The translations under genes were made by a program, and so were the position numbers. Shown in pieces: positions 1 through 24,912 of a stretch of DNA of 29,456 nucleotides. Where the stretch lies: the IMG/VR virus record IMGVR_UViG_3300002461_000876. The stretch is one strand, 5' to 3'. Position 1 is the stretch's first letter. Each line of letters starts with the position of its first letter. Source of the DNA: a virus. The notes under the pieces were generated by a model, which searched no databases, was not told where the DNA came from, and was given only the letters and a program-made list of their open reading frames with translations.

Positions 1-1381
1 TCTCGTACGCCCACGAGTCCTGGTACCCCACCCACGGTCCGTTGGTCGGACCGACATCTCCGGACCATGTCGCGATGACCATGGACGGATCGTGAACATC
101 GGATCGGATCTGCCGCACCGCGTCCACGGACACAGCGCCCGCTCCTTGGAGCTGAAGGAAGACGATCGTCGGCTGGAGCTGGCGGGCCGCCTCGACAAGC
201 GCACGATCCCTCGAGGCCGTGTCTCTCAGACTGGTCCACTGCACCACGGAGTGGCCGGCGCTACCCATGGCTCGGAACGCCTCGACCATAGACGTCTGAG
301 GGTCATCCTCGGTCCAGAGCTGGAAGTGAAGGAACCTCTCGGGGCCGGAGATCCGGTTCGCTGGGATGCGTCCGACATCAGGATCGAGACTCGGTATCCT
401 GGACCATCGCTGATTCGGAGACTCGCCGATCTCGATCCTTCGCAGTGCCTCGAGTTCGTGAGGTTGAACAGATGGCGCAGGACCCCTGAACGACAGCCTG
501 TCGATCGATGGCCAGCGGCGGAAAAATCCCCGTCGCGCGACGTCCTTCTTGGAGTTTCCGGCTCGGAGTTCGTCTCGGTGTTCGTCGTGGCGAACCCTTG
601 CGTCAGGAGCTTCGACGACCTTGTACCCGAGGCGGTACACCCAGCATGAGAGTTCGGTGTCACCTCCGTAGGTGTAGTAGACGCTCGCCCACATGCCGCC
701 GCAGATCTCGGCGATCTTCTGGAGCAGAGAGCCTCGAGTGATCGAGAAGTTGGCGTAGGGGATCGATCCGAAGATCTTCTCGTTCTTCCACTTCCCACCC
801 TCGAGGAACGCCATCGAGATCTGCCCAACGAACGGATCCCGGAAGTAACGAACACCCTTCTCGATCGCATCATCGTAGAGCTCGGCATCGTCGTTCATGG
901 CGACGACGTAACGCCCCTTCGACACGGACCATGCTGCATTGAACGCCTTGACAGCGCCGTTGAGGCCGCCGTTGACGACGGTGCAGTCGGGTTGATCCTT
1001 GAGCCATGCATACGACGGATCCGCCTCCGAACCGATCGCGACGATAATCTCGTAGGTCGTCGACGAGCACGCCTTGCGAATCGAAGCGACGCAACGCTGA
1101 AGAAGAGATGTTCGGTTGTGTGTACCGAGGACGACGCTGATCTCGACAGAGTACGATCCGACATCAGGGAGGAGCGGGTGGAGAAGCTTCGTGTCGACGA
1201 CGCTCGGGTCCGGAGGGATGTAGCCACGGCTCCGAGGATGTCGAGGTCCGGATGTCTCTCGACTACGGCTTTCTCTCGGCCTTGGATTGGGGACTGGGGT
1301 GACGACTCGATCTACGGATGGAGAGTTCGGACGAATCTTGACGCTCCGTCCGCCGTCACCCTTTCGGATCTTGATCCCCAT
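1..1381 (-). CDS. Two-domain glycosyltransferase (GT2/GT-A domain plus a probable CgeB-like GT-B domain), 3' end outside the window
   Basis: Not in the ORF track because it has no stop in the window. Manual translation from ATG 1381 (MGIKIRKG...) stays open to base 1 and gives the GT2 signature ISVVLGTHNR...YEIIV...AFNAAWSVSKGRYVVAMNDD and YGGDTELS, then PTIVFLQLQ...WSGD. Confidence 0.85.
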   Translation of the reverse strand, partial: MGIKIRKGDGGRSVKIRPNSPSVDRVVTPVPNPRPRESRSRETSGPRHPRSRGYIPPDPSVVDTKLLHPLLPDVGSYSVEISVVLGTHNRTSLLQRCVASIRKACSSTTYEIIVAIGSEADPSYAWLKDQPDCTVVNGGLNGAVKAFNAAWSVSKGRYVVAMNDDAELYDDAIEKGVRYFRDPFVGQISMAFLEGGKWKNEKIFGSIPYANFSITRGSLLQKIAEICGGMWASVYYTYGGDTELSCWVYRLGYKVVEAPDARVRHDEHRDELRAGNSKKDVARRGFFRRWPSIDRLSFRGPAPSVQPHELEALRRIEIGESPNQRWSRIPSLDPDVGRIPANRISGPERFLHFQLWTEDDPQTSMVEAFRAMGSAGHSVVQWTSLRDTASRDRALVEAARQLQPTIVFLQLQGAGAVSVDAVRQIRSDVHDPSMVIATWSGDVGPTNGPWVGYQDSWAYE

Positions 1382-1387
1382 CGCGAT

Positions 1388-2245
1388 TCATCCACGAATC
1401 TTGGCGCCCTTGGGGCACGTCGGACAGGGAGTTTCTGGCGTCGTGGTCGCGGACTGCGATTCACGGACCGTCACGGTGCTTCGTTGGGGGATGGTGGAGG
1501 TTCCACCGGGGCGTCCGACGCGGATTCTGTTGGCGTTCTGCACGGGTCTCTCCTGGGTCTTGGCTGCTGGAGGTTGAGGTGAAGCAGCCCCCCTCATAGT
1601 CCACGTACAGCGATGATCACGCAAGAAACTGTTATCGTCGTGGTAATGCCTCGTCTTCTGCCCGTAGAACGCGTCAACCGCCGATCCGACGTCGATGATG
1701 GTCTGACGCCTCGAGGGATCTTGCCGGGTCCAGTATCGATGGATGATCACCTTCGCGCATGGCCCAGCCGCAACGAAGATCGGACGATCGATGCCTAGGA
1801 GCTCGTCGACCACGGAATCCAGATCCCAAGTGGAGGAGACCCCGTCCTTGGGAACCTCAATCCCGCCGTGTTGACCCACGACGATGGCGTCGTAACGGTG
1901 GAACAGCTCTCCGATCCTCGAGAGATTGGCGTGGAGGAAGATCGTCGCGAAGGTGAGCCTCGACTCAGGAGTATGGATTCGGTTCGCCAGTGTGACGTAC
2001 TTGGCGAGACAGCAAGCCATAGGGATCCCGACACAGTATCGGTCGTCGACATACTCCATCGACTCGATCAAGTACGGAGCGATCCACGACTCCCCTCTCG
2101 AGGCGTCGGTCCTCCACTGGTCCGCGCTCACGTAGGGTTTCTTCGCGACGAGGCTCGCCTCTCCATCCCCGTACCTGACCAGCGCGAACGGTTCCTCGGC
2201 CTCGAGGATCGCGTCGAAGTCCCGATCGTGACGATGGCTGAACAT
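1388..2245 (-). CDS. GT-D fold (DUF1792-like) glycosyltransferase
   Basis: FALVRYGDGE, AAGPCAKVI and IIDVGS resemble GT-D family motifs; adjacent to a GT2 gene; low-complexity C-terminal tail ending in CPTC. Confidence 0.7.
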   Translation of the reverse strand: MFSHRHDRDFDAILEAEEPFALVRYGDGEASLVAKKPYVSADQWRTDASRGESWIAPYLIESMEYVDDRYCVGIPMACCLAKYVTLANRIHTPESRLTFATIFLHANLSRIGELFHRYDAIVVGQHGGIEVPKDGVSSTWDLDSVVDELLGIDRPIFVAAGPCAKVIIHRYWTRQDPSRRQTIIDVGSAVDAFYGQKTRHYHDDNSFLRDHRCTWTMRGAASPQPPAAKTQERPVQNANRIRVGRPGGTSTIPQRSTVTVRESQSATTTPETPCPTCPKGAKIRG

Positions 2246-2273
2246 CGACCTATACTAGACGATCACATGAACC

Positions 2274-2784
2274 TGGCACTGAGTTCTTCTCTTCCGACCC
2301 GACACGAGATTCGACCACGGCAATGACCCCTGACACTGGATCCTGATGTTCCCGATCCGCTCGACGATCAAGAGCAGCTATGCCTGGCACGGAGTCCTGA
2401 TCTTCCGACCTGGTACGAGATCGCTCCGAGTAGAACGACGTCCGTCATGGCGAGCGTGGCACTGGGTCCTGCTCTTCCGACCCGGTACGAAAACATCTTA
2501 ATCCGGGGTCCTGCTCTTCCGACCCGGTACGATGGTCCGAGCATCTGACCGTGGCACCGGGTCCTGTTCTTCCGACCCGGTACGAGCTGAGTCGCACGCC
2601 ACGCACCTCGGCGATGAAGTCGGCTGGCACCGGATCCTGCTCTTCCGATCCGGTGCGAGACTTTTTTCGCGAAGTCCAGGCGGTGTCTGGCACTGGGTCC
2701 TGCTCTTCCGACCCGGTACGAGGTGAGGCCCCGGTCTTGCGTGCGTCGCTCCATTCATCTCGGATCGGGTCGGAAGTTCAGGAC
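2274..2784. repeat. Array of eight 34-bp hairpin direct repeats (consensus TGGCACYGGGTCCTGCTCTTCCGACCCGGTACGA) with unique 15-39 bp spacers, plus one inverted copy
   Basis: Copies at 2274-2307, 2331-2367 (degenerate), 2385-2418, 2457-2490, 2506-2532 (5' truncated), 2552-2585, 2625-2658 and 2688-2721; inverted copy at 2760-2784. Confidence 0.95.
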
Positions 2785-2807
2785 ACTTCCCCGTTCGTAG
2801 AGGGCCA

Positions 2808-2833
2808 CCTCGATCCGAAGACTCGGGTCGAGG
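2808..2833. terminator. Stem-loop flanking the repeat array
   Basis: CCTCGATCCGA-AGAC-TCGGGTCGAGG: 11-bp stem with one T-G pair; no long U tract. Confidence 0.45.
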
Positions 2834-2958
2834 CTTGACGGCACTCTCCAGGGGCATCACATCGGGCATGCCCTGCCCTAGACCAGCTCGGTGCCGGCGA
2901 CGTCAACCTGCCACGGATCGGCGTCGCTCGGCAAGGGAAAGTTTCCGGACCGGTCAGG

Positions 2959-3831
2959 TCACGATGGGGTGCGGACCGTGAAGTCGCGGAACCTTCCCAG
3001 AATGTCGGATGGTCCGTCGACGTTCGAGTAGGTCATGAGTCCAAGCGCTACCGTGTTTGGCATCGCAGGAGTGGCGACGCTTCGATTGACCGTGTTGATC
3101 AGCGTCCATGGTCCATCTTGCGAGGGTCCGAAGAACGTCGAGAAGATCTGTCCGATCCTAAGCAAGCGAAGCCATCCCGCTCCACTTGGGTTCGGGATGT
3201 AGTCGAAGTGAGACACGCTGTCTTCCGTCGACTTGTGCTCCGCCTGCAGAGCACCTGTTCCGTTCGAACCGAACCCGACGTGGACATAGTTGTAGGGCGG
3301 ACCAGAGGTGTCGAGCGCGGACAGACCGACGATTTTGAAATCTTCGGTCGGGGCTGCAGCGTCATCCGCGGCGTTCCTGGCCTCCGCGTAGACTCGAGCA
3401 TCGAAGTTCAGGGGGCATGCCTGGTTGAGAAGGAGCCCGTCGAACGCGTTGAACCAGAACGTTCGGTTGACGCCAGATCCTCCGCCGATGATCGGGATCC
3501 GTGCGTACCCTCCACCTACCGTGATCCCCGGCGTCGCCGCGGGCTTGATGATCCCCCACTTCGGAAGAAGTAGGTCTCCTGAGAACGGATCGTCGAGCGC
3601 CGAGAGAGGATCGACGTAGGGCTCCGGAGGAATGTCGATCTCTGGAACTGGATCCGTCGCGAAGAACGGATCGTAGTCCGGGTATCTCACCAGCGATCTG
3701 CGGACTCTTCCGTTTCGAAGAGCGGCCAGTCGCATGAGCTCCTGGGCCGTGAACCGAACCGGGTCGATCGTCCGAATGGGATCGCTCTGAACTCTCAGGT
3801 AGTGACGGGCCCGTCCGATCAGGATCAGCAT
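2959..3831 (-). CDS. Protein with C-terminal concanavalin A-like beta-sandwich (DUF1349-like), possible virion receptor- or glycan-binding protein
   Basis: GWLRLLRIGQIFSTFF...DGPWTLI...LGLMTYS...FRDF pattern typical of ConA-like domains. Confidence 0.55.
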   Translation of the reverse strand: MLILIGRARHYLRVQSDPIRTIDPVRFTAQELMRLAALRNGRVRRSLVRYPDYDPFFATDPVPEIDIPPEPYVDPLSALDDPFSGDLLLPKWGIIKPAATPGITVGGGYARIPIIGGGSGVNRTFWFNAFDGLLLNQACPLNFDARVYAEARNAADDAAAPTEDFKIVGLSALDTSGPPYNYVHVGFGSNGTGALQAEHKSTEDSVSHFDYIPNPSGAGWLRLLRIGQIFSTFFGPSQDGPWTLINTVNRSVATPAMPNTVALGLMTYSNVDGPSDILGRFRDFTVRTPS

Positions 3832-3861
3832 TCTCCGTCCAGCCTACCACGCCCCTGAAAC

Positions 3862-3904
3862 GACTCGAGGCGCGGCCGATGGATCACCGGGCGCGCCTCG
3901 AGTC
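3862..3904. terminator. Strong hairpin just downstream of the 3921-5513 gene
   Basis: GACTCGAGGCGCG...CGCGCCTCGAGTC, a perfect 13-bp inverted repeat in an intergenic gap. Confidence 0.6.
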
Positions 3905-3920
3905 CGATCCTGAGGTTGGC

Positions 3921-5513
3921 CTAGACCGAGGCTTCAGCGGTCGCCTCGGGGCTGCCCGAAGCCTCATCTGCTGCCGGTTCGACCGCAGCGTCGACGACCA
4001 TGGGCCTCCATCCGATTCCCCTGTACGCCTCGTAGACCTCCCTCGCCACGGACTTGGCGCCGACGCCGGAAGAGTCGAGGAGCTGGGAGATCGAACCCTG
4101 GTGAGACGGCGGGTTGATCATGCCCCACGTCGAACGCTGCGAGTCGTAGGGAAGAACGAGCGTCAGACCTCCGATGTGCTGGACCACCGCCGCGAGATGG
4201 GTGGACCACCCCCTCTCGTGGACGCGCTGGAACTCGCGGAACGCCCGCATCGTCGCGACGCTGCACACCCATGCACCCCGGCCGACGTCGACCTCGACCT
4301 CCGATGCGTTCGGAGCCTCGGGCCCGATCAGCTCGATGTCGGAGCTGTCATCCGAATGGTAGATCGTGCCCGCGGCCGCGACGACCACGGGGATCCCCTT
4401 CTCCTCGAGCTCCTTGATCCGTGCGACAGCCAACTCGAACCACCGACCCGAAGGGATCGAATCCTCGTCGAAGACCGCGACGTACGGAGTCGTGAACTCC
4501 GCAGCCTGCAGGAACCGACGCCACGGTCCCATGTCTCGCTTCGACTGGTGCACCATCCCCGGGATGGCGTCGATCGCCGGAGCGTCGCTGGGGTAGATCG
4601 ACGATGGGTTCACCCAGAGCTCGACATCGTACGGTCGCAGGGTTTGCCGCGAGATCATCGTCATCTGCTGACGGAGCAGCTGCGGACGATCGTGGGTCGA
4701 GAGCATCACGGTGATCGGCGACGACGGATCCAACTCGATCGGGCGGACCGCAGACGATCCAGGGCGTGCCTCGACGCTCATCGATCCGACCGGGGCCCCG
4801 GGGAGGATCGGCGAGTCGGTCGAAGGCAGCGTCACGCCAGGGGGCTGGCCGACGGTGTTGCCGGTCGGAATCGGGGTCTCGGTGGGCACGACACGGATCC
4901 CTGCCGTCCCTTGCGTCGTGACGATCCTCGCGCCCGAGACCGGGTGGCCGCTGGTCTGCCGCGCGATTCCACCCGAGTGCTGGGGAGGTGCCGGAAGAGG
5001 CGTTCCACCCCTCACCGAGACCGGTCCACGTGGACCCGTCACCGATGGGCGTCCCGCGCTACGGGGTGTCGGAGCGACGCCGGGCGCCGAGGTCACTCGG
5101 ACCTTCCAGGCCGCCGCCTTGTCGCCGCCGGTCTGATTGGTGCGGACCTGGCCGAGCGGATCGTCGGGGTTGAACTCGCGCTGGTTGTTCAGCTCGAAGT
5201 TGGGATTCACGACGTGGCCGGGTGGGATCACGCGGCCGTCCGGGGCCAGGTTCTGGACGAAGTTGGGGTTCACGACGTGACCGGGCGGAACGATCGATCC
5301 GTCGGGGGCGCGAGGGGGTTCGGGGAACGATGCCGGGAGGGTCGGAGCGACGGTTCGCGCCTCGACCGAGGCCGGTTCGGACGCCGGGCCAGGAGCTGCG
5401 TCCCAGGGCATCGTCGCTTTTCCTGACGCAGGCGGAGCGTGGTCCGCGGGTGGAACGGTCGTGGCGGTGGCGGCTCGAGCAGCTCGAGCTTCGGCGAGTT
5501 TGTTGTCGGTCAT
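3921..5513 (-). CDS. GT2-like glycosyltransferase with long Pro/Ala-rich N-terminal extension
   Basis: ITVMLSTHDRPQLL...QTLRP...YVAVFDEDSIP (DxD motif); about 260 aa of low-complexity N-terminus containing a 21-aa tandem repeat. Confidence 0.75.
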   Translation of the reverse strand: MTDNKLAEARAARAATATTVPPADHAPPASGKATMPWDAAPGPASEPASVEARTVAPTLPASFPEPPRAPDGSIVPPGHVVNPNFVQNLAPDGRVIPPGHVVNPNFELNNQREFNPDDPLGQVRTNQTGGDKAAAWKVRVTSAPGVAPTPRSAGRPSVTGPRGPVSVRGGTPLPAPPQHSGGIARQTSGHPVSGARIVTTQGTAGIRVVPTETPIPTGNTVGQPPGVTLPSTDSPILPGAPVGSMSVEARPGSSAVRPIELDPSSPITVMLSTHDRPQLLRQQMTMISRQTLRPYDVELWVNPSSIYPSDAPAIDAIPGMVHQSKRDMGPWRRFLQAAEFTTPYVAVFDEDSIPSGRWFELAVARIKELEEKGIPVVVAAAGTIYHSDDSSDIELIGPEAPNASEVEVDVGRGAWVCSVATMRAFREFQRVHERGWSTHLAAVVQHIGGLTLVLPYDSQRSTWGMINPPSHQGSISQLLDSSGVGAKSVAREVYEAYRGIGWRPMVVDAAVEPAADEASGSPEATAEASV

Positions 5514-6529
5514 CGTGAGATTGCCTCTGTGGTCGAGTCTGTGTCCTGGATCGAAACAGGGAAGTAGTGCGTCTTGCCATCTCGGCTTTCTGATCGCACG
5601 CGTCCCATCTGAGTAAGCCTCTTGATCGAACTGCTGATTTCTGATCGCTTCGCAGCGATCAGACCAGGGAGAGTGGCGCCGGGAGTACCTGAGAAGCCGT
5701 GCTTCTCGATCTCGCTCATGACGACGTCATCGAGGTCACTGTGATCGTAGTAGCCGATTCCCTGTTGCTTCACGTCTGCGGATCTCGACTCCGAGAACAA
5801 CGACGTCTGCATATGGTTCGTGAGCGTGGCGATGCGATCACTCGAGCACTTGAAGTTCTCGAGCTTCTTCTCGATCCCGAGAAACCTTCGGCCAAGACCG
5901 ATCGCCGCAACGCCGGTCGTCCCAGACCCGAGATGGGAGTCGAGGATCGATTCTCCGGGCTGCGTGTAGTCCCGTACCAGTGCCTGCATCAGTCCAAGTG
6001 GCTTCGCTCCACCGACGCTTTGATCGTGACGCTCAGAGCAGTAGTACCCACCGGGCTTGGTGCCCCACTTCTTGCGCAACTTGGGACGAGCGACGACCAG
6101 GTAGATCGCCCACGACGAGGGCCCATCGCCTTGGATCCGAACGTTCATGCCCGGAATGATGATCGGGATCGGGTGGAAGACATAGTGACCGAGACGCTTG
6201 AGCTCTCTCTCCCAGATCGGGTAGAGCACATGATCGGTCTGGACCAAGATCCACTTCCTCGTGATCCTGACGTAGTGCTCGGAGAGCACGGCCACATCCT
6301 TCTCGCTCAAGAAGTCGTAGCCCAGTCCATCCTTGGTGATCCAGGAGGCCTGGTTCTCTTCTGAGTCACGGCGCGTCGTCTTCTGACCCTCGTGGGTCTT
6401 CGCGCTGTAAGGCGGATCAGGCATCGTGTGATCGATCGACTGATCCGGTACCGAAGGAAGACCTTCGCTTGCGAAGCAGTCGGCGTGGACGATCTTCCAG
6501 CCCGATTCTGGAATCGTGAGCGAGTTCAC
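5510..6529 (-). CDS. N6-adenine/N4-cytosine DNA methyltransferase (beta class) with C-terminal winged-helix-like extension
   Basis: Catalytic DPPY precedes the SAM-binding ILDSHLGSGTTGVAA...FLGIE; KPLGLM motif. Confidence 0.92.
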   Translation of the reverse strand: MNSLTIPESGWKIVHADCFASEGLPSVPDQSIDHTMPDPPYSAKTHEGQKTTRRDSEENQASWITKDGLGYDFLSEKDVAVLSEHYVRITRKWILVQTDHVLYPIWERELKRLGHYVFHPIPIIIPGMNVRIQGDGPSSWAIYLVVARPKLRKKWGTKPGGYYCSERHDQSVGGAKPLGLMQALVRDYTQPGESILDSHLGSGTTGVAAIGLGRRFLGIEKKLENFKCSSDRIATLTNHMQTSLFSESRSADVKQQGIGYYDHSDLDDVVMSEIEKHGFSGTPGATLPGLIAAKRSEISSSIKRLTQMGRVRSESRDGKTHYFPVSIQDTDSTTEAISR

Positions 6530-7552: not shown

Positions 7553-8242
7553 TCACTGGTCAGGACGCGGTCGACTCCAGTTCAGAGCGGCCTGCCTGCA
7601 CTGCTTGAAGAAGTCGGTGGTCCATGCCGGAGACGATGCGTTCGGAGGCCATGTCTCGTTCGGATAGATCGAGTTGGCGATGCACACTGCGAGTCTCGGA
7701 GCATCGATCGTCGGCAGCTTCTCGAGGCAATCCCTCGCGACTCTTCCTGACATCAGCCAGAGAAGACCTTGCCATCCGGATGGATCTTGGGTCCCGTACT
7801 CCTGGGCGACTCGTTCACGAAGGTCAGACTCGACACGGATCGCGGCATCCCGCTGCCACGACTCCCAGGTTGCAGGGTCGGTCCACGGCCCTGACTCGGG
7901 AAAGCTCATCTCCAGGGCGCATGTCACGGCTTGCGGCCACGACATCACGTCATCGTCGCGTCGACACGTCGAGACAGCATCTCTGGATCGCTGCTCCCAT
8001 CTCACTTCCCACGACTCCTCAGGCTCGACGGCGACGGCCTCGGGTAGTGCTGGGGTGAGCGGAGGCGGAGGCGGAGGAGATGACTCCGGGAGCGACAGAG
8101 GAGAGGATGGCGGAGCAAGAACCTTCATCCGAGACCGCCTGCGGAGAAGAGCTGCCGTCGTGACCGTTGCTGCTCCGAGAAGAACGGCGACGATGCCGAT
8201 CTTCAGCATGCGACGGCTCGGATTCTTGCGTCTCCGCTTCAC
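7553..8242 (-). CDS. Membrane-anchored hypothetical protein with Pro-rich linker (putative virion protein)
   Basis: Start re-assigned to GTG 8242 (MKRRRKNPSRR), then a TM segment, poly-Pro and a Trp/Cys-rich domain. Confidence 0.7.
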   Translation of the reverse strand: MKRRRKNPSRRMLKIGIVAVLLGAATVTTAALLRRRSRMKVLAPPSSPLSLPESSPPPPPPLTPALPEAVAVEPEESWEVRWEQRSRDAVSTCRRDDDVMSWPQAVTCALEMSFPESGPWTDPATWESWQRDAAIRVESDLRERVAQEYGTQDPSGWQGLLWLMSGRVARDCLEKLPTIDAPRLAVCIANSIYPNETWPPNASSPAWTTDFFKQCRQAALNWSRPRPDQ

Positions 8243-8246
8243 GACC

Positions 8247-8444
8247 TCAGGATCCTTCCGACTCGAATCTCGATGTCTCCGCGATGTACCGCTGGAGTTT
8301 CTCCCAGAGCACGTCGCTGACCACGTCGCCGCGACGAAGCTTCTCCGCCGCCTCATCGAGAGCCTCTTGCTTCGAACGCCCCGCATCGATCGCCGTCGTG
8401 ATGATCGACGCGATCGACTTCCCGATCTCTTCGATGGTGCTCAT
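8247..8444 (-). CDS. Small hypothetical protein (65 aa)
   Basis: MSTIEEIGKS...; ATGA overlap with the upstream lipoprotein gene. Confidence 0.7.
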   Translation of the reverse strand: MSTIEEIGKSIASIITTAIDAGRSKQEALDEAAEKLRRGDVVSDVLWEKLQRYIAETSRFESEGS

Positions 8445-8878
8445 CGTCCGAACGCCTCCGAGAGTGCAGAGAAGATCCCGAGTTCTCGAAGCGTGGAGGA
8501 GAGCGCGCTGACGCTTCTCGCCACCTGACTCCTGGCATCTTCGATCTCTTCGGGCGTCGCATCGCCCTTCTTGATCACGAAGTACAGCGTGGTCTGGGCC
8601 GTTCGAAGAATATCGACGGCTGTGGCCACCTTCTCTGCGGAGACGGAGTCGCAGGGGCGGAGGCAGGCCACTCTCTGCTCCTTGGTCTGCTTCCATCCCG
8701 CATCTGCTGCGTCGCGATCTTCATCGACGCATCGCGGACGAACGACGCTCTCGCAGTACTCGAGGTAGGAGTCTCCGATTCCATCCGCGGCGGTCTTCTG
8801 CAGGACAGCGAGCTCGGCAGGAGATGGACGGAACGATGCGCAGGAGACGAGCAGGAGTGTGGCGGTGATGGCTCTCAT
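8441..8878 (-). CDS. Putative lipoprotein
   Basis: Signal peptide with lipobox-like LLVSC. Confidence 0.7.
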   Translation of the reverse strand: MRAITATLLLVSCASFRPSPAELAVLQKTAADGIGDSYLEYCESVVRPRCVDEDRDAADAGWKQTKEQRVACLRPCDSVSAEKVATAVDILRTAQTTLYFVIKKGDATPEEIEDARSQVARSVSALSSTLRELGIFSALSEAFGR

Positions 8879-8896
8879 CGTTCGAGATCCTTCGCC

Positions 8897-9559
8897 TCAG
8901 ATCGCGTTGGCTCCGGCGATCATGTCCTCCCAGTTCCACGGATTGCCGTTGGCGTTCGAGAACGCCCACTGCATCGCGGTCCAGGTCTTCGGGCCGATGT
9001 ACCCGTCGGCGGTGAGCTTGCCGATCGGCTTGTTCATCGTCGTGACGAAGATGCCCCAGTTGTCCACCAGTGCGTTCCAGTCTTTCTGGAACTGTCGGAC
9101 CGCAGATCGACCGCTGGTCCCGGTGATCTTGTACGACGCCTGGTTCAGCTGACTGACCTCGGGCTTGTACCGACCGTCGCTGAGCTTGACGAGAGCCCAC
9201 CCGACGCTGCCCTCGTTGGGGTACGTGGACTGGTTCGGCCAGACCCAGCCTCCGCCGATCACGTCGGAGGGAACCGTGCTTCCGCCGCCACCGCCACCGC
9301 CGCCACCGCCACCACCACCGCCGCCACCGCCACCGCCGCCACCGCCGGGTTCGACCGGCTCGACGGGCCCTGTGGGAGGAAGCGTCTTCTTCTTCTTCTT
9401 GATCGCGGATGCCGCGGCGACGCCGATGCCCAAGGTGAGGGCTGCGGCTCCGGCAGCGAGCGCCCACACCGTCGTGGTGGGGTTCACGATCATTCGGAGA
9501 GGGTTCGGAAAAATGCCGTGACGGCGTGAACGATGGGTTCGGGTTCGGCGTCGAGCCAT
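8897..9559 (-). CDS. Membrane-anchored protein with poly-Gly linker and peptidoglycan-binding-like domain
   Basis: Arg-rich N-terminus, TM segment, KKKKK, about 22 Gly, then AVRQFQ...LTADGYIGPKTWTAM resembling PG_binding_1. Confidence 0.8.
   Translation of the reverse strand: MARRRTRTHRSRRHGIFPNPLRMIVNPTTTVWALAAGAAALTLGIGVAAASAIKKKKKTLPPTGPVEPVEPGGGGGGGGGGGGGGGGGGGGGGSTVPSDVIGGGWVWPNQSTYPNEGSVGWALVKLSDGRYKPEVSQLNQASYKITGTSGRSAVRQFQKDWNALVDNWGIFVTTMNKPIGKLTADGYIGPKTWTAMQWAFSNANGNPWNWEDMIAGANAI
9281..9346 (-). repeat. GGC/GGT trinucleotide tract encoding about 22 Gly
   Basis: Run of gcc/acc triplets on the + strand. Confidence 0.95.
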
Positions 9560-9674
9560 GCCCAGGACCCTACCAAAACAAGGGCCAAGGTGTGAAAAGT
9601 AGAGGATTGCTCCCTAGAGGCGCCTGAGAGCCGTTTTTCGCGTGCGAATCGATGGCAGTGCTAGGGTAACGGCC
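9560..9674. promoter_or_regulatory. Divergent promoters with extended -10 boxes (TGnTAGGGT), each 7 nt before an ATG
   Basis: Minus strand TGG-TAGGGT (hexamer 9567-9572) before ATG 9559; plus strand TGC-TAGGGT (hexamer 9662-9667) before ATG 9675. Confidence 0.65.
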
Positions 9675-10067
9675 ATGGAATCCGACCGCGAGAAGTACCG
9701 CCGCAACCTGATCCTCGACCGAGATCTTGCCTCCAGGGTCATGGACTGGAACGAAGGTCAGGGGTCGGAGCTGTATTCGTTCGCTTCGTCCGGCATGAAC
9801 GACTACGTCTCTCAGTCGATGATCGAGCGCGCGATCGATGAGCTGTCCAGGCTCGAGCGCCGTGCTGATCGGAAGGGCAAGAAGGAGATTGGTGAGCTCA
9901 TCGGAGAGCTTCAGTCGGTGCTCTTCTCGCCGTACGAGCACTCGACCAAGGCGGCGACGGGGGAGGATGACGACTCGGGATACGATGACCGAGGCCTCGG
10001 CATGGTCGAGAACCCTTCGTCTTCGTCACGAGCACGTGAACTCGCGAGGCGTCTCGCGAATCCTTGA
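9675..10067 (+). CDS. Hypothetical protein ending in ENP...LANP
   Basis: Protein-like composition; start re-assigned to ATG 9675 after the TAGGGT box. Confidence 0.75.
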   Translation: MESDREKYRRNLILDRDLASRVMDWNEGQGSELYSFASSGMNDYVSQSMIERAIDELSRLERRADRKGKKEIGELIGELQSVLFSPYEHSTKAATGEDDDSGYDDRGLGMVENPSSSSRARELARRLANP

Positions 10068-10162
10068 CGACATTCCTTGCGCAGGATTCGTCCGAAAGAT
10101 CATCGATCGAAGCGTTGGTCACGTCGTGCTCTACCGACGAGATCAGGTGGTAAGATCTACGT

Positions 10163-10540
10163 GTGACCGAGCCGAGGATTTCTGATCTTCTTGTCTCGAT
10201 CGAGGCGCACCACGATTCCCTCGTCGAGCACTCCGGCGACTATGCCCTGATGCACGCCGAGATACTCGAGACGTCAAGCGCGATCCGATCCGCTGCATCG
10301 ATCGACCAAGCTGCGTTCCGGAAGATGGGCCTGGGTTCCGTTGCGGAGCGCATCGAGCAGATCGCGTCACGTGCTGAAATGATCGCTGGCCGTCTCGCAT
10401 CTGGGCTCGAGAGGCTCTCTTCGATCCTCCAGGCTGCGGAGGATACCGTCCCTGACATGCGCCGATCGGATCTCGGATTGCCAGACGGTCCGGCCGACGA
10501 GGAGTCTGGTCCTGTTGTCGTCGACCCCGATCCGGGCTAG
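10163..10540 (+). CDS. Hypothetical helical protein
   Basis: Protein-like composition; TGG-TAAGAT box 6 nt upstream of the GTG. Confidence 0.7.
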   Translation: MTEPRISDLLVSIEAHHDSLVEHSGDYALMHAEILETSSAIRSAASIDQAAFRKMGLGSVAERIEQIASRAEMIAGRLASGLERLSSILQAAEDTVPDMRRSDLGLPDGPADEESGPVVVDPDPG

Positions 10541-10980
10541 ATGCTCGCGCCGGTGAGGCGCATCCACGCGTCTCTCAGCAAGCGGGTCGCTGTATCTACC
10601 GACAGCATCTTGTTCGGACACCCGAGCGCGTTGACGAAGAGCGAAGCCATCTGCGTCGACCTCGAGCTCAGCTCGTCCGGGCCGATCTGATCGGCGCCGT
10701 CGACCTTCCCCCACATCGGCAGGAACACGTCGGTCACGAGAAGGTCCTGCTCCATCGCAGAAAGGTTCTGCGGTCTCAGACACATCGCTTGAAGCGCAGC
10801 TCGTACCGGGAGATTCGAGATCGGTGGCGTCGGCGTCGACGTTCCCTCCGGACCAAGTTGTGGTTTCTCGTCCTTCCGACGAATCAAGATCGCAGAGACT
10901 GTGGCTCCGATCGCGACTGTGGCGGCGGCGATGATGCCGTAGATCTTCTGCTTGCGGGTGAGATTCCGAGCCATGTTCAT
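10537..10980 (-). CDS. Membrane-anchored hypothetical protein
   Basis: Basic N-terminus plus TM segment IYGIIAAATVAIGATVSAILI. Confidence 0.75.
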   Translation of the reverse strand: MNMARNLTRKQKIYGIIAAATVAIGATVSAILIRRKDEKPQLGPEGTSTPTPPISNLPVRAALQAMCLRPQNLSAMEQDLLVTDVFLPMWGKVDGADQIGPDELSSRSTQMASLFVNALGCPNKMLSVDTATRLLRDAWMRLTGASI

Positions 10981-12761
10981 CCTCGCTTCGATCGGCGACG
11001 CAGCCGAGACCTGGTAGCTGTGATGGTACGACGTACATCGTCGGAGAACCAGAACATCAGGCCGGCGATGCTGGCCAGACCTGCGGCTGTCGCAACGCCG
11101 AGCATGATGTTGCTTCTCCGGGCTCTTGGCCCGGGTCCAACGAGCGATCCCCCTGGAATAGGAAGGCCGAGCCCTCCGGTGGGCGGGGCGACCTCGACGC
11201 CAACCGCCGGGGCTGCGGTGAGGCCCATGTGGTTCTTGGTCCCCCCGCCTGCCTTCTCGATCTGGTCTCGGTAGACCGGATCGAGAACGTCCTCGAGGCG
11301 AACCTCGTACTTCTGACTGCTCTCGAGGATCCTTCTCCGAGCCTTGACTGCGTGTTCTCGCATCGACTTGCTTCGCATCGATCCGAGGACGTTGGGTTGG
11401 TTCAGTGGATCAGCATCGACTCCGCCTTCGAATGGCAGGTAGGCGGCAAGCGTTGTGTTGTCGAGGTACCAGAGCTGAGCCGTGAGAAGCTTGTTGAGCG
11501 CTGGGAAGATCACGTTCCTGGCAGCGTTGGATTCGTTCCAGGAGTCGTAGTCCTTGTCCTTGAGCTTCCCCTCTCGCATCGGTCTCCAGGAGAGGAGGTT
11601 GATCTGCCCGTTGAGACCGACCGTGTAGTTTCCGACGAGGTCTTGCAATGCGTTCTCCCAGAGACCGCATCCCCATCCGATCGTGTGGTTGCCCTTGCCT
11701 TGCCACGGAATCTCGTGCCAGTACCTGTCCACGCCGGCCCAGATGGAATCGAAGTAGTCGTTCCACTGCTCGCTGAGCTCGAGCGCGTTCAGTGTATACA
11801 GGGAGGCGCCTCGCTGGAAGATGAACTGCCAGAGCGATGCACATCCCTGCGACGTGACAGGGTAGAAGGTTCCGACGTCGATCGTGGAGACCTTGCCAGA
11901 GCTTCCGCATCTCGGATCGTACAGCGTGGGGTGATCTGACGTGTAGCCAACCGGTGCCTCGAGGGTGGTCTGTTGGATCACGCTGTAGATCAGCTGGCCG
12001 CCAGGGATGAACCCGAGGCCTCCGCCTTCGATGAAGGTTCCATCTGCGGTAAACGAGTTGTCGTTGGTGACCCTTGGGACCTTCCCGTCTCCCAGGGCCC
12101 AGGCGAGGACATTCCTCTCCTGCTCATCGACGCGCACCTGCATCGACAGGTCGCCCTTGAACCTCGGCATGAAGATCGGGTTCCAGTCGAGACCTGCACG
12201 CATGACAGAACGGACCGCGTCGTTGAACTGCGACGTGTCCGTATCTCTCGAGTACTCCTGTGTCGGGATCTTCCCCGTCGGGGCGACGCCTTGGCTGTCC
12301 GCCCACGCACCTCCGAGCCAAGCTCCGAACTGGATGATCGCCGCGGCGATCTGCGTGTAGATGTTGGGAACAGCGCTGAGCGCCTTTCCGGCGATCCCAA
12401 TCGCGGTCGTGAGTGCCTCATCTCTGACCTTGAGAGCGTTCAAGGAACTGACGATCGTGTCGAACGCCCGAAGCGAACTCCGTGTCACGTCCAAGAATGG
12501 AGCGAGTACACCGGCACGAGACGCGATCTCGTAGACGATGTACTGCTGCTGACGCAGAAGGTTTCGCAGGGATCGATCCGCGATCGCCACCGCGAGCTTA
12601 TGAGGAGGGATCGCGAGGTTCCCGAGCACTAGACCCGGATCCAACAGCGCGTTGTCGAGGAGCTCGTCCGACGGGCTCATTGGCTGGAACGGATCGGCCG
12701 GGTTGAAGGCCGGATCGACGAACCTCTTGAGCGGATTCGGACTGTTGATGTCCAAGAGCAC
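10977..12761 (-). CDS. Large C-terminally membrane-anchored protein (putative virion or entry protein)
   Basis: Probable GTG start at 12761, just after the upstream stop; internal hydrophobic stretch; C-terminal TM segment and Arg-rich tail. Confidence 0.75.
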   Translation of the reverse strand: MLLDINSPNPLKRFVDPAFNPADPFQPMSPSDELLDNALLDPGLVLGNLAIPPHKLAVAIADRSLRNLLRQQQYIVYEIASRAGVLAPFLDVTRSSLRAFDTIVSSLNALKVRDEALTTAIGIAGKALSAVPNIYTQIAAAIIQFGAWLGGAWADSQGVAPTGKIPTQEYSRDTDTSQFNDAVRSVMRAGLDWNPIFMPRFKGDLSMQVRVDEQERNVLAWALGDGKVPRVTNDNSFTADGTFIEGGGLGFIPGGQLIYSVIQQTTLEAPVGYTSDHPTLYDPRCGSSGKVSTIDVGTFYPVTSQGCASLWQFIFQRGASLYTLNALELSEQWNDYFDSIWAGVDRYWHEIPWQGKGNHTIGWGCGLWENALQDLVGNYTVGLNGQINLLSWRPMREGKLKDKDYDSWNESNAARNVIFPALNKLLTAQLWYLDNTTLAAYLPFEGGVDADPLNQPNVLGSMRSKSMREHAVKARRRILESSQKYEVRLEDVLDPVYRDQIEKAGGGTKNHMGLTAAPAVGVEVAPPTGGLGLPIPGGSLVGPGPRARRSNIMLGVATAAGLASIAGLMFWFSDDVRRTITATRSRLRRRSKRG

Positions 12762-12763
12762 AG

Positions 12764-13060
12764 TTACCCTCGAGTTTCGTTCGCGTCGCTGTCCGATTCG
12801 CCATCCGACTCGACTGGCTCGGACGACTCGGAGAAGCGAGCATGAATGATGCCGTTGACGATTCTTCGCATGGAGAGGCGTGCGCCTGCGCCGAACGCCG
12901 CCATGATGCCCATGGACTGCTGGTTCAATCCAACCCATCCCTGAGCAACAGCAACTCCCCATGTCGTTCCGATCACGATCATGGCGAAGTCGAGTCCGTC
13001 CTCTACGATCGTGAGGTAGGTCTGGATCTTCTTGGGGCTGATCTTCTTCTCGGTGCTCAT
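12764..13060 (-). CDS. Small two-TM membrane protein, holin-like
   Basis: 98 aa, two hydrophobic segments, charged C-terminus. Confidence 0.55.
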   Translation of the reverse strand: MSTEKKISPKKIQTYLTIVEDGLDFAMIVIGTTWGVAVAQGWVGLNQQSMGIMAAFGAGARLSMRRIVNGIIHARFSESSEPVESDGESDSDANETRG

Positions 13061-13620
13061 CTCTGTTCTCCGGACTTGTCTTCGATGGGTGGTGGGGTAC
13101 GGATGCCTTCGTGACGATTGAGGTTCTCGATCATGACCTCGATCCGGGTGAGCCGGTTGGATTGACGGATCACCTCCTCGATGTCTGACTTTTTCGAGCC
13201 TTCGATCTCACCGATCCTGCTCTCGACCGACTTGAATCTCTTCTCGTCGGCGTCCTGCTGGTACTGCCTCTGGATCCTCATCTCGTTCATGGTTCTGTCG
13301 TTCGACACCCACCATGCCCCGATCGTGACGACTAGGGTCGAGGCCACCGAGATCAGAATCGAGTACCTCTTGAACCAAGGCTCCGGAGCGCTCGGCTCCG
13401 CCATCGCCTTGATCGACTGATCCTGAGCCCGGACGATCTTGATCAGGCTGGCGAGCTGGACCTGCATCTTGTGCAGATCCGACGAAGCCTCCATGTCCGC
13501 GGCTAGTTTTCGAAGCTGCTCGTTCGGAGGCGGACTCATCTTGTTCACCAACCTACCACCGCTGACGCAGGAGAGCGTCGTGTAGCCGTGGACGAGTTGA
13601 AGAGCGACGTCAGGCATCAC
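13057..13620 (-). CDS. Single-TM coiled-coil protein (start may be ATG 13539)
   Basis: TM segment SILISVASTLVVTIGAWWV followed by a heptad-like region. Confidence 0.7.
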   Translation of the reverse strand: MMPDVALQLVHGYTTLSCVSGGRLVNKMSPPPNEQLRKLAADMEASSDLHKMQVQLASLIKIVRAQDQSIKAMAEPSAPEPWFKRYSILISVASTLVVTIGAWWVSNDRTMNEMRIQRQYQQDADEKRFKSVESRIGEIEGSKKSDIEEVIRQSNRLTRIEVMIENLNRHEGIRTPPPIEDKSGEQR

Positions 13621-13671
13621 ACTGGCCTTTCGATCGTACGGCGCGTCAGATGCACTGGTTCGTACATCGGA

Positions 13672-14352
13672 TCACTTCGCAGCACGTTCTAGCTGCTTCG
13701 AGTTCTCCCTCTTCTTCTTCGACCTCCGTTTCCCCTTCCTCTTCTTCGGGTTCTCCGTGACCTTCTTCGGCGATCTTCGGATCACGACTGCGATCGCTGT
13801 CGTGGCCGATACCGCAACGACGAAGCCTCCGACGACGAGCGTCCACTTCAACCAGCTCGGCATCTTCTCCGCCTTCAGCTCGAACTTCGTCGGATCTCCC
13901 GTCGAGCCCGGGGCTGCCGGAGGCTCGGACTTGTACCGGGCCGCTGCGACATCCACGAGCTCCATCAGACACAGCGCGTCTTGGACGACCTTCTTGGCGT
14001 CTTCGATGGAATCTTTCCACGGATAGACCGGAGGAGTGACCGACCACCATGGAAGCGGTTCGACCAACGCCTGGTACTTCTCGGTCATCGAGTTGTTCAG
14101 GGGGACGAGCTGATTCCACTCCGGGTAGCTTCCTCCGACCGCGGAGTCGGTATCGCATCCGTATCCCCCGGTTGCCTCGCACTCGATCTTCCCCAGCCAG
14201 TTGAGGTTGTCGTTGGCGCTGGCCGATAGCCTCTGCGCCAGATCGAACCACTCCTCGTAGTCCGAACTCGTCGCCATGATCCCGTACGGCTGCTCGAGGG
14301 TGAGGCCAGATTCTGTGACGGCGAGGTGCCGATACTTGTCTCCACACGTCAT
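13672..14352 (-). CDS. C-terminally anchored membrane protein, paralog A
   Basis: Start MTCGDKY at 14352, chosen by alignment with its neighbour; TM segment plus a basic ENP-containing tail. Confidence 0.8.
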   Translation of the reverse strand: MTCGDKYRHLAVTESGLTLEQPYGIMATSSDYEEWFDLAQRLSASANDNLNWLGKIECEATGGYGCDTDSAVGGSYPEWNQLVPLNNSMTEKYQALVEPLPWWSVTPPVYPWKDSIEDAKKVVQDALCLMELVDVAAARYKSEPPAAPGSTGDPTKFELKAEKMPSWLKWTLVVGGFVVAVSATTAIAVVIRRSPKKVTENPKKRKGKRRSKKKRENSKQLERAAK

Positions 14353-14903
14353 GTCCGGATTCCTTCTCGATGCTTCGATGACTTGAGTCGCTTGCGACCA
14401 GGGTTCTGCCTCGGAGATTTCTTGGCGACCTTGACGATCAGTGCCGTGGCTACCAGCGTCGCACCGATGATCCCGGCACCGATCACGGACCACTTGAGCC
14501 AAGGCGGGGCAGGTGATGGCTTGTCGAGATCCGGGGAAGGGGTGACGCTTGGCGTCACCGGAACTTCTCCTCCGTACGAGACGATGACACGCTGGGCATC
14601 TCCGATCTCATCGGCCCAGCTCCATCCTCCGAAGTACAGGAGCCCTGAGGGGAGCTCGTGGAACTTGAAGACCATCCGGTTCTTGATCTCGACCAGGGCG
14701 TTCCACTTCGTGAACACGCCGGCCTTCTCTCCCTCGATCACCCCGAGCGCGTCGAAGCGAGAGACCGCCGTCTTGACCAAGTGATCCGCGAGGTCGTACC
14801 ACTCCTCGTAGTCGGAGTCCGTCGCAACGTTCCCGTACGGCTGCGACAGGTTCAGGCCTGAGGCCGTGACGATCAGTCTCTTGTACTTTTCTCCGCAGGG
14901 CAT
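14349..14903 (-). CDS. C-terminally anchored membrane protein, paralog B
   Basis: Start MPCGEKY at 14903; shares QPYG..AT.SDYEEW.DLA and P.WLKW with paralog A. Confidence 0.8.
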   Translation of the reverse strand: MPCGEKYKRLIVTASGLNLSQPYGNVATDSDYEEWYDLADHLVKTAVSRFDALGVIEGEKAGVFTKWNALVEIKNRMVFKFHELPSGLLYFGGWSWADEIGDAQRVIVSYGGEVPVTPSVTPSPDLDKPSPAPPWLKWSVIGAGIIGATLVATALIVKVAKKSPRQNPGRKRLKSSKHREGIRT

Positions 14904-15032
14904 GGGTCCTCTTGGTACGAGGCGGGGACGAACCCCGGACCCTGTGGACCCTACCAAAACGCTACGCCAAGTCTCGATTCTGCAAGAGATCGGCGAGTGC
15001 TGGCCGAAATCGAGCCCGTACGGACCTGAAAT

Positions 15033-22719: not shown

Positions 22720-22958
22720 CGAAGAACTCCATCCTCAGTGAGCCGGATCGCGCCGGCAAGACTAAGCGCCCCTGTGGCGACCTTCACGACGAGCCTTGCC
22801 ACGGGCGGACAGGGTGCAGAGCGAAGTCCGAGACCGGTCTCGATCTCGATCTGCTCCTCGGAGAGACCCGCTTCGAGCAGTCGCTTGCGGGCGTTCGCGA
22901 GCTGCTGCTCGCTGGGTCCCATGTCTCTCGTCTCCATCGCTGGGTCTGACGCGTGCAC
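22716..22958 (-). CDS. Small hypothetical protein (start may be 22922 or 22937)
   Basis: First gene of the leftward operon; ATGA overlap with the next gene. Confidence 0.6.
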   Translation of the reverse strand: MHASDPAMETRDMGPSEQQLANARKRLLEAGLSEEQIEIETGLGLRSAPCPPVARLVVKVATGALSLAGAIRLTEDGVLR

Positions 22959-23141
22959 CTTGAGCCTTCTTCCAACTCCCCATGCGCTGGACCGCTCGAA
23001 GAGTTCCTGTTGCGTGTACCGGTCCGGTAGGGTAACTTCCTCCGCGTGTCAGCGCAACGCGAAAGTTCCTCGTGCGTCTCGGCGCATGGGGAGTGGAAGA
23101 GACAAGCGCACCGGGTCGTCAGACGGGTGTGGACGCGATGG
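22934..23141. repeat. Diverged inverted duplication flanking the strand switch
   Basis: Core GCGCATGGGGAGT(T)GGAAGA on the minus strand at 22968-22987 and the plus strand at 23082-23100, with further collinear blocks on both sides. Confidence 0.75.
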
Positions 23142-24115: not shown

Positions 24116-24705
24116 TGCAGACTGTGAAGTTCCGGGGCTATCACGAGGTCGATGGTCTTCCGTTTCGCCGGGGCCAGAGCGTTGTCGTGCCTTCCTCTAC
24201 GGAGGTCGACAGCACGGACCCCAAGCGCCGGAAGTTCAAGACCCGACGCCGTCAAACCGTTCGCGTCGACCATGTTGGCTGCGGCCGATCCTTCTGCATC
24301 GGCCACGTCTACGGCGACAGTCAGCGCGTCGGATCACTGATGGATCGTGGCGACATCGACATCCTTCAGGATCGCTACGGAACCTCTGATCTCGATGCTC
24401 TGGTTCACCACCGCGATGTAGTCGTGAAGGGTCGAGACATCTTCATCCCGATCGACAACCCCACGATCGTGTGGGCGGGAAGCGGTGGGTACTGGTGCGA
24501 GGTCGATCTGAACGACCTGCTCGAAGCGAACGGAATCCGCCCGACTCCCGTCCTGGAGAAGTGTCCGTACTGCGGAGAGGATCGAACGCCCCTTCCTGAT
24601 GGGACGACCCTAGAGTGCGTCAAGTGCGGCCGGGACGGATGCGACTCGTGCATGCCTGGAGGTCGCGGAGTGGCCTGTCCTGACTGCGAGGAGAAAGAAC
24701 CATGA
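24106..24705 (+). CDS. Hypothetical protein with C-terminal Cys-rich zinc-finger region
   Basis: CPYC, CVKC, CDSC, CPDC. Confidence 0.75.
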   Translation: MEVMQTVKFRGYHEVDGLPFRRGQSVVVPSSTEVDSTDPKRRKFKTRRRQTVRVDHVGCGRSFCIGHVYGDSQRVGSLMDRGDIDILQDRYGTSDLDALVHHRDVVVKGRDIFIPIDNPTIVWAGSGGYWCEVDLNDLLEANGIRPTPVLEKCPYCGEDRTPLPDGTTLECVKCGRDGCDSCMPGGRGVACPDCEEKEP

Positions 24706-24912
24706 GGCCGTACGGAGCGGATCGTTGCGTTGATCGAAAGTGGATGCACCACCATCATCGGTGGCCTCGCGATCGCGTCGACCATGTGCGGATCGTTCGC
24801 TCGGAACGAAAACGAGCTCGTAGGATCGCGCGCGAGGAGTGCATGACGCAGAACATTCATGCTGAAGGTCGCGTAGCGATCTGCCCTGACTGCGAGGAGA
24901 AAGAACCATGAG
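24679..24912 (+). repeat. 28-bp identical direct repeats CCTGACTGCGAGGAGAAAGAACCATGAG
   Basis: Copies at 24679-24706 and 24885-24912. Confidence 0.95.
24702..24911 (+). CDS. Small Arg/His-rich protein between the direct repeats
   Basis: GAGGAG RBS; ATGA overlaps. Confidence 0.55.
   Translation: MRPYGADRCVDRKWMHHHHRWPRDRVDHVRIVRSERKRARRIAREECMTQNIHAEGRVAICPDCEEKEP

Follow-up and report, generated by a model that had tools for sequence, protein, structure and literature searches.

The window analysed here (a stretch of 29,456 nucleotides, IMG/VR virus record IMGVR_UViG_3300002461_000876) raises a two-part question: what is the array of short repeats and unique spacers near its left end, and what protein could make use of it? 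A first-pass annotation, which had correctly reported that the window holds no cas genes, took the array for an undescribed class of viral repeat element. We find instead that the repeats very probably form the crRNA half of a cassette in which a TnpB-type tracrRNA is joined to a CRISPR array. We read the cassette as a split TnpB omegaRNA (tracrRNA plus array) because a covariance model of TnpB omegaRNA cores ranks its three complete scaffolds ahead of everything else in the 65 kb of DNA that we examined. Among the candidates offered previously, a processed guide-RNA array on the minus strand with its effector elsewhere thus proves to be essentially right.

The array and its omegaRNA-derived scaffold

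The array (2273..2722, minus strand) is made up of eight direct repeats with plus-strand starts at 2273, 2330, 2384, 2456, 2498 (a truncated copy), 2551, 2624 and 2687. The number of copies agrees with the earlier count, and the repeated unit measures 36 nt rather than 34. A 20-nt repeat core finds eight matches in the window at three mismatches or fewer, against 0.02 expected; seven are in the array and one is an inverted copy. The spacers between the 36-nt repeats are 21, 18, 36, 6, 17, 37 and 27 nt long. When the gaps are measured in the 34-nt register (23, 20, 38, 8, 19, 39 and 29 nt), five of the seven lengths given before are recovered, and the two discrepancies hang on the gapped copy at 2330 and the truncated copy at 2498. 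Three related loci described below (L078, L079 and L082) carry three more arrays. Over the 25 repeats of the four arrays, which are not independent copies, mismatches grow with distance from the right end (Spearman 0.71), and the degeneration remarked upon at the left end is therefore real. The best-conserved repeat of the window adjoins the scaffold, and the repeat nearest the scaffold has no mismatch or one in 4 of 4 arrays. Among the 18 spacers of at least 14 nt, 11 measure 34-39 nt and are unique; short spacers occur mostly away from the scaffold, two are 6 and 9 nt long, and many repeats are degenerate. Direct repeats of 36 nt, unique spacers and decay from leader to trailer are all features of a CRISPR array, in which repeats measure 23-50 nt and spacers are of similar length.

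The palindromic repeat forms a real hairpin with a CTGCTCTTCC loop, as had been noted. It had also been argued that a compensatory GGATC/GATCC pair in two copies points to selection on the symmetry. This pair is in register at 2624 (1 of 25 copies); the copy at 2330 has it one base out of register, and four copies have an uncompensated A.C at the site. Double changes occupy 5 of 250 cells across the 25 repeats of the four arrays, and the upkeep of hairpin symmetry by compensatory change is not supported. The Rfam search that had been suggested matched no family: none appeared in the window at the gathering level, weak and unrelated matches alone appeared there at E up to 10, and L078 gave nothing. 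The window has no tRNA gene. A tRNA-Glu(TTC) gene lies inside a repeat of the L079 array (377-449), on the predicted transcribed strand of that cassette.

To the right of the array is a conserved block (2723-2953); the first-pass annotation had delimited the array itself but had missed this block and the inverted ninth copy of the repeat (2755-2784). On the minus strand, the order of parts is promoter-like motif, omegaRNA core, anti-repeat and array. The anti-repeat (2755..2784, minus strand), which is the inverted copy, is complementary to 26 nt of the repeat, and a linker (2723..2757, minus strand) of 35 nt, or about 110 nt in L078, leads from it to the first repeat. The anti-repeat:repeat duplex is worth about -43 kcal/mol on either strand and leaves the guide-adjacent end of the repeat unpaired. 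In alignment, the anti-repeat starts where stem 4 of an omegaRNA starts, directly after the omegaRNA core, and it replaces that stem. The omegaRNA-derived tracrRNA core (2783..2882, minus strand; 100 nt) is recognized by the covariance model, a structural descriptor, the alignment and consensus folds. It comprises stem 1 (2878-2864) with the loop GGGCA, a pairing of CCCC (2854-2851) with GGGG (2792-2789), a GAG/CTC stem and a variable hairpin. The stem-1 loop, GGGCA(T), and the repeat end GTGCC have complementary sequences; after GTGCC come AG and then the spacer. A pseudoknot is predicted between this loop and the 3' end of the repeat, immediately before the guide; its arm would be GTGCCAG (2687..2693, minus strand), the 3' end of the leader-proximal repeat. 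The arm is kept, as GT(G/A)(C/T)CA(G/C), at 24 of 25 repeat ends, and the TGCCA with which minus-strand repeats had been said to end is indeed this predicted arm. Further, TnpB omegaRNAs of L088, L089 and L117 have the same complementarity of loop and end in other letters.

The covariance model, R1, derives from an alignment, made without the window sequence, of 16 omegaRNA cores from unrelated TnpB loci. In this training alignment, the named structure is present in 90.6% of cells, and all 13 pairs show double changes. With filters off, R1 was applied to both strands of 65,019 bases and returned 24 matches, the best of them at window 2882-2783 on the minus strand (29.0 bits, E 1.4e-5). The other complete scaffolds, in L078 and L082, score 26.9 and 24.8 bits, both on the minus strand, and the best match beyond these three reaches 11.4 bits. 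On 14 held-out TnpB loci, the model found six matches of 22-37 bits in five loci. A structural descriptor was made by hand after sight of the window sequence. With stem 1 included, it matches the three scaffolds and nowhere else in the element (shuffled windows gave 0.03 matches each); the descriptor picks out 11 of 35 TnpB 3' ends (10 of 29 on the training side and 1 of 6 among those fetched later). In searches for omegaRNA homology by sequence only, neither nhmmer nor gapped local alignment ranked the scaffold; only the structure-aware tests did so. The architecture of the cassette equals the guide-pseudoknot-stem core described in PMC10097598. In that paper, the core is treated as the equivalent of Cas12f repeat-antirepeat 1 and 2, and tracrRNA and crRNA are proposed to have arisen by a split at the stem-4 loop. 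A like pseudoknot is described for Cas12n in PMC12216341.

We favor the minus strand as the transcribed one because of covariation, a G.U bias, the position of the best repeats beside the scaffold, and a leftward promoter-like motif. Consensus folds of the three scaffolds have a covariation term of -0.99 on the minus strand versus +1.34 on the plus strand, and mismatches within repeats fall as G.U 32 times on the minus strand versus 16 on the plus. Single-sequence folds favor the plus strand in two of three copies, and the plus strand has a sigma-70 consensus site (2228-2256) without a counterpart in L078. The leftward motif is a predicted sigma-70-like promoter (2905..2934, minus strand) with -35 TTGCCG, 18 nt, and an extended -10 TG-n-CAGGTT; an A/T tract lies upstream of it, and transcription would start near 2898. 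The motif is found in 3 of 3 scaffolds and is also matched upstream of the tnpB gene in L078. Indeed, the pattern TTGC-N11-14-TCCGTG, which was chosen post hoc, occurs at exactly these four places in 65 kb, against 0.45 expected. A looser form also marks another gene start, and the motif is thus better regarded as a promoter family of the element than as a private tag of the cassettes. Related to the scaffold promoter is the family CCCTACC(G/C)G..GTAA..CTTGC-N15-TGnCAnnnT, which is located upstream of two genes at L078 16524-16475 and 2777-2727 (minus strand).

Dispersed cassettes and a candidate effector

A metagenome scan gave five loci, of which three were true (L078, L079 and L082) and two were chance matches (L080 and L081). 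L078 and L079 are parts of one 101.8-kb contig. The arrays of the three true loci all have different spacers, and the same anti-repeat stands after each; the complete scaffolds of L078 and L082 are about 91% like that of the window, with changes that keep the structure. The cut end of L079 and the start of L082 may be halves of one cassette, and our count is thus at least four arrays and three complete scaffolds. Beside none of the four arrays is there an effector (75 ORFs scanned). Contigs of other runs hold the same repeat with other spacers of 35-36 nt, and cassettes are present in runs of other studies. Positions 2730-2960 are covered by several contigs with different flanks, and the summed depth there is 5-7 times that of the flank in runs X1 and X4, a figure that is not a copy number. 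Runs X1, X4, X5 and X6 hold the left part of the window and also cover L078, including tnpB. The depths of the window and L078 are about 8 versus 7-10 in X1 and about 68 versus 70-76 in X4, and the spacers of L082 occur in X1 at a depth of 7.8. The sequencing runs listed for the window include no RNA run, a fact without bearing on expression. No contig joins the window to L078; we infer that the window, L078, L079 and L082 belong to one genome.

The collections searched contain next to no relatives of the element. In viral contigs, the repeat is absent, a triple-core pattern hits 77 loci, none with the repeat, a 17-mer of the scaffold has one chance match inside a gene, and the neighboring protein, the TnpB clade and the stem-1 pattern are all unmatched. 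A search of 185,579 species genomes for the repeat yielded no array, just two single matches that look like chance, and the scaffold had nothing significant among phages and plasmids.

The gene content of the window is virus-like, with a helicase, a ParB-like protein, an M23 peptidase, a methylase, superinfection-exclusion gp17 and many unknowns; no capsid or terminase was identified with confidence, and "virus-like" therefore rests on gene content. Glycosyltransferase-like genes flank the cassette (1-5513), with a weak GT-D-like match at 1388-2245, and a 290-aa protein encoded at 2959-3831 has nine homologues, all unnamed. An N6/N4 methylase is encoded at 5510-6529. A run of membrane-type proteins (7553-14957) with basic N-termini, NP motifs and a poly-Gly tract has no Pfam or PHROG match, and its 661-aa member has no Atlas match above 0.81. 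Among the 4-mers of the window, GATC and TCGA occur most often; neither strand contains AATT, possibly a sign of restriction avoidance. The other loci encode a RelA/SpoT-domain protein (L079 7950-8855), an HNH nuclease (L078 11429-11920), a radical-SAM protein (L078 11755-12822), a thymidylate synthase (L078 15152-15994) and a HAD RNA-repair domain (L082 1391-1969). A second dispersed element (window 22920-23125, L078 6810-7012, L079 4009-4210) consists of about 200 nt of nested inverted repeats, folds at -100 to -126 kcal/mol and lies near strand switches. Its L078 and L079 copies are 97.5% alike and 70% like the window copy, and it encloses a core common to the element's promoter family; it could be an origin, a telomere-like site, a MITE or a regulatory RNA.

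A six-frame profile search of the 65 kb revealed a single TnpB-like sequence, a 430-aa protein encoded at L078:1427-2719 (minus strand), with none in the window, L079 or L082. Between this candidate effector gene and the far end of the L078 array lie 6,954 nt that include other genes. The tnpB gene has no omegaRNA match at its 3' end, where the next ORF overlaps its stop codon, and it is conserved at a fixed place in four runs. The protein has Cas12u4 as its best PADLOC model (241.5 bits) and an IS607-type TnpB neighborhood, and its structure model (pLDDT 76) ends in a helix at residue 427. Its catalytic triad reads D-E-Q: Gln replaces the RuvC-III Asp, one of three catalytic residues is lost, and no acidic residue takes its place in the motif. 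RQxNTA replaces DRDxNAA in the 14 closest of 32 homologues (15 of 15 in the alignment), and the RuvC-I Asp and RuvC-II Glu are invariant in the alignment of this Asp-less clade (15 of 15). In a quick, provisional tree of 61 proteins, the 17 Asp-less proteins (14 with RQxNTA, two with RPRNTA, and the query) form one branch with a support of 100. The RPRNTA members, P0025 and P0026, are longer (581 and 501 aa), and the RuvC-I context of P0026 is also altered. L114 scores best against the clade profile, yet the tree does not make it the sister of the clade; its omegaRNA ends in AGTGTCAG, compared with AGTGCCAG at the end of the repeat, a hint only.

The L078 TnpB is, in our estimation, somewhat more probably than otherwise the partner of the cassettes. 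If it is, binding without cleavage would be the likely mode of action. The co-occurrence of protein and cassettes is seen in one lineage (four runs). A study of TnpB-derived repressors (10.1101/2023.11.30.569447) reports that mutating any DED residue abolishes activity while cautioning about relocated residues, and PMC10691335 notes that conserved RuvC-III changes may be rearranged yet active sites.

A proposed mechanism and its alternatives

We lean, by a modest degree of belief, towards a scheme in which the cassettes act in trans as guide sources for the one TnpB known in the element, a protein predicted to bind DNA without cutting it. One transcript would run leftwards from about 2898. The anti-repeat would pair with the repeat, and the repeat end GTGCC with the stem-1 loop; both pairings would rebuild the guide-pseudoknot-stem core that TnpB binds. 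Host nucleases would trim the cassette RNA, which would then load on the remote TnpB, and each spacer would serve as a 3' guide starting right after the pseudoknot arm. The complex would bind TAM-flanked DNA without cleaving it and so block transcription or replication, with targets most likely in competing related elements. The first 12-16 guide nucleotides would suffice, and short spacers may thus still work. The guides of the TldR repressors measure 16 nt with a seed of about 6 nt (10.1101/2023.11.30.569447); spacers of 16-21 nt therefore need not be dead.

Searches of phages and plasmids for protospacers yielded chance matches only, and in viral contigs none of 80 seed matches could be extended, each having 10 or more mismatches. 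Within the element itself, seed matches are not enriched (9 versus 12 in the control). CRISPR arrays gain spacers at the leader end through Cas1-Cas2. Here, orthologous arrays in run X4 have lost or replaced units and show point changes, and neither cas1 nor cas2 is found in the 65 kb; any active acquisition of spacers is thus conjectural, and partial decay is possible. A start-associated repeat (window 24656-24706 and 24862-24912) ends in a ribosome-binding site and ATG and precedes two genes. A spacer of L079 (173-209) matches it at 11 of the first 12 guide bases, which hints that related elements, at their gene starts, may be the source of spacers. Some fragments recur in the spacers and linkers of different cassettes; in one case, 14 nt of a window spacer (2600-2613) are common with the long linker of the L078 cassette (10226-10239), which suggests exchange between cassettes.

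More tentatively, the whole could be viewed as a distributed, multiplexed form of natural CRISPRi, with four to seven self-promoted cassettes, lying kilobases from one another, and one nuclease-dead TnpB of an unrecognised clade; we consider this possible without yet favoring it. If true, it would constitute a TnpB-to-Cas12 transition that arose independently: its RNA side would have multiplied and parted from the protein gene, and a screen that looks for arrays only next to effectors would miss such systems. The omegaRNA appears to have been caught after it split into a tracrRNA and an array, at a stage when the pseudoknot and stem 4 can still be made out, and this bears on the origin of type V CRISPR from TnpB plus spacer gain without cas1. 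Should the pairing with the L078 protein hold, it would provide a 430-aa natural DNA-binding (non-cutting) effector with a tracrRNA of roughly 115 nt and a built-in multiplex array. It would also give reason to re-screen orphan viral arrays with omegaRNA models, beyond their neighboring genes.

The chief alternative retains the cassettes but changes the nature of the protein: an intact TnpB or Cas12 elsewhere in the genome, or the RQxNTA protein itself if active, would cut competitors in the manner of CauTranC9. We judge this unlikely, albeit by no means negligible. We examined 65 kb, and at least 71 kb of the 101.8-kb contig lie outside that DNA, as would any other contigs, so another effector may exist. 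There are 3-5 TnpB-like places per large phage record, and large phage genomes are reported often to carry several TnpB-like genes and orphan arrays (PMC12607003). The invariance of the RuvC-I Asp and RuvC-II Glu in the clade would suit an active enzyme, as would the statement that RuvC-III-altered branches may stay active (PMC10691335). Against these points, the L078 TnpB lacks an omegaRNA of its own and yet holds a fixed place in four runs, and its gene has a promoter motif in common with the scaffolds. Further, no acidic residue makes good the loss of the RuvC-III Asp, and the reported effect of any DED mutation is the abolition of activity (10.1101/2023.11.30.569447).

It is improbable that the arrays are relics out of use, i.e. 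decaying or selfish non-autonomous right-end derivatives of an IS200/605/607 element. Degenerate repeats, spacers of 6 and 9 nt, the tRNA-Glu gene inside a repeat, fragments common to the spacers and linkers of different cassettes, and the failure to find targets or cas1 would all agree with disuse. They are opposed by scaffolds that are about 91% alike with structure-keeping changes, by leader-proximal repeats with at most one mismatch in 4 of 4 arrays, by a pseudoknot arm intact in 24 of 25 repeats, and by the occurrence of cassettes in runs of other studies. The cassettes could instead be viral mini-arrays or RNA decoys by which a type V effector of the host is used or jammed; known mini-arrays and Racr would be precedents (PMC11656645), and no effector adjoins any array here. 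We nonetheless give this explanation very little credence: no array of this repeat turned up in the 185,579 species genomes, a collection that may lack the host, each cassette has its own tracrRNA, and the element encodes a TnpB without a guide.

A plus-strand RNA of the CRISPR-associated IscB or type II kind (spacer, repeat, anti-repeat, scaffold) is scarcely credible. On that strand, the part order is the same as in DelIscB (PMC12660989), folding energies are equal or better, and the site at 2228-2256 could act as promoter. Against it, there is no HEARO match at E up to 10 and no iscB or cas9 among the ORFs scanned, and R1 matches the minus strand; moreover, the anti-repeat fails to pair with the guide-adjacent repeat end. 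A by-eye comparison of the DelIscB and AwaIscB RNAs with the cassette gave no convincing match. A CsrB/RsmZ-like sponge or a cluster of DNA-binding sites (parS, origin, packaging or sigma-54), candidates that the first-pass annotation had raised in part, may call upon the palindromic repeat, the ParB-like gene and the GGA motifs of the minus-strand loop, but these are hardly tenable, since they leave the anti-repeat, the omegaRNA core, the polarity and the unique 34-39-nt spacers (11 of 18) unexplained, and there is no Rfam match. A sponge of that kind would have many GGA motifs in the loops of short hairpins and would lack long unique spacers. Sigma-54 sites have a GG-to-GC spacing of 10; that of the repeat is 11. 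REP/BIME elements are palindromes with a GTAG-type foot that occur singly through a host chromosome with a RAYT gene. They were rejected here, as the copies lie only in arrays and no RAYT was found among the ORFs scanned.

Relation to known systems

On the RNA side, the system resembles TranC/type V-U, and on the predicted protein side TldR or Cas12m. Jin et al. 2025 reportedly present TranC/type V-U systems as intermediates between TnpB and Cas12. The clade studied here may sit in the tables of that work and of Altae-Tran et al. 2021, both of which are said to have used 10-kb windows and could have caught the L078 pair. In the literature searched, an arrangement of several tracrRNA-bearing cassettes served by a remote dead TnpB is not described, and the repeat core was not found; one supplement of PMC10691335 has no match to the repeat or motif. 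Orphan arrays in jumbo phages are already known (PMC12607003).

With TranC/type V-U, the cassettes have in common a tracrRNA that is homologous to the TnpB omegaRNA core, bears an anti-repeat and lies upstream of the array, as well as a predicted pseudoknot of the stem-1 loop with the repeat end just ahead of the guide. As described, those systems likewise have an omegaRNA split into a tracrRNA and a short array of 32-38-nt repeats, a TnpB-sized effector, no cas1/cas2 nearby, and occurrence in a viral genome; the RNA side of TranC and the phage-borne CauTranC9 are treated in 10.64898/2026.03.27.714800 and 10.1101/2025.09.28.678669. In the TranC accounts, however, effector, tracrRNA and array share one locus and the nuclease is active, whereas here at least four arrays, each with a tracrRNA and promoter-like motif, have no adjacent effector, and the candidate effector lacks the RuvC-III Asp (D-E-Q, not D-E-D). 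Cas12n (V-U4/V-N) resembles the present case in being the best PADLOC model, in its IS607-type TnpB neighborhood, and in a core of stem 1, pseudoknot and triple helix (PMC12216341). It differs in that its tracrRNA overlaps the 3' end of the ORF and that the protein, of about 544 aa, has a disordered C-terminal tail and an intact D-E-D; the protein studied here has 430 aa, no RNA in its ORF, D-E-Q, and a model ending in a helix.

TldRs (10.1101/2023.11.30.569447) are, like the L078 protein, immobile RuvC-defective TnpBs, with a virus-like element as setting and RNA-guided repression as the predicted function. The primary TldR screen asked for two or more lost RuvC residues and the wider set for one to three; in the L078 protein, one catalytic residue is lost. 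As reported, a TldR has one adjacent single-guide omegaRNA and a fixed target. The L078 tnpB has no such neighbor; its guides would be supplied by remote arrays whose tracrRNAs are separate. Cas12m (V-M) and viral mini-arrays (PMC11656645; 10.64898/2026.09.14.751636) are similar as arrays borne on mobile elements without adaptation genes, the former silencing by binding and the latter being located away from cas genes. According to these sources, however, Cas12m needs no tracrRNA and adjoins its own array, and mini-arrays copy a host repeat and use host effectors. Finally, the stand-alone trans omegaRNAs and the omegaRNA arrays of sigma-factor-linked dCas12f (PMC10691335) also keep guides apart from the effector gene, several to a genome. 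As portrayed there, each unit is either a complete single-guide RNA or a long duplicated stretch (>60 nt), whereas the unit here is a tracrRNA plus an array of 36-nt repeats.
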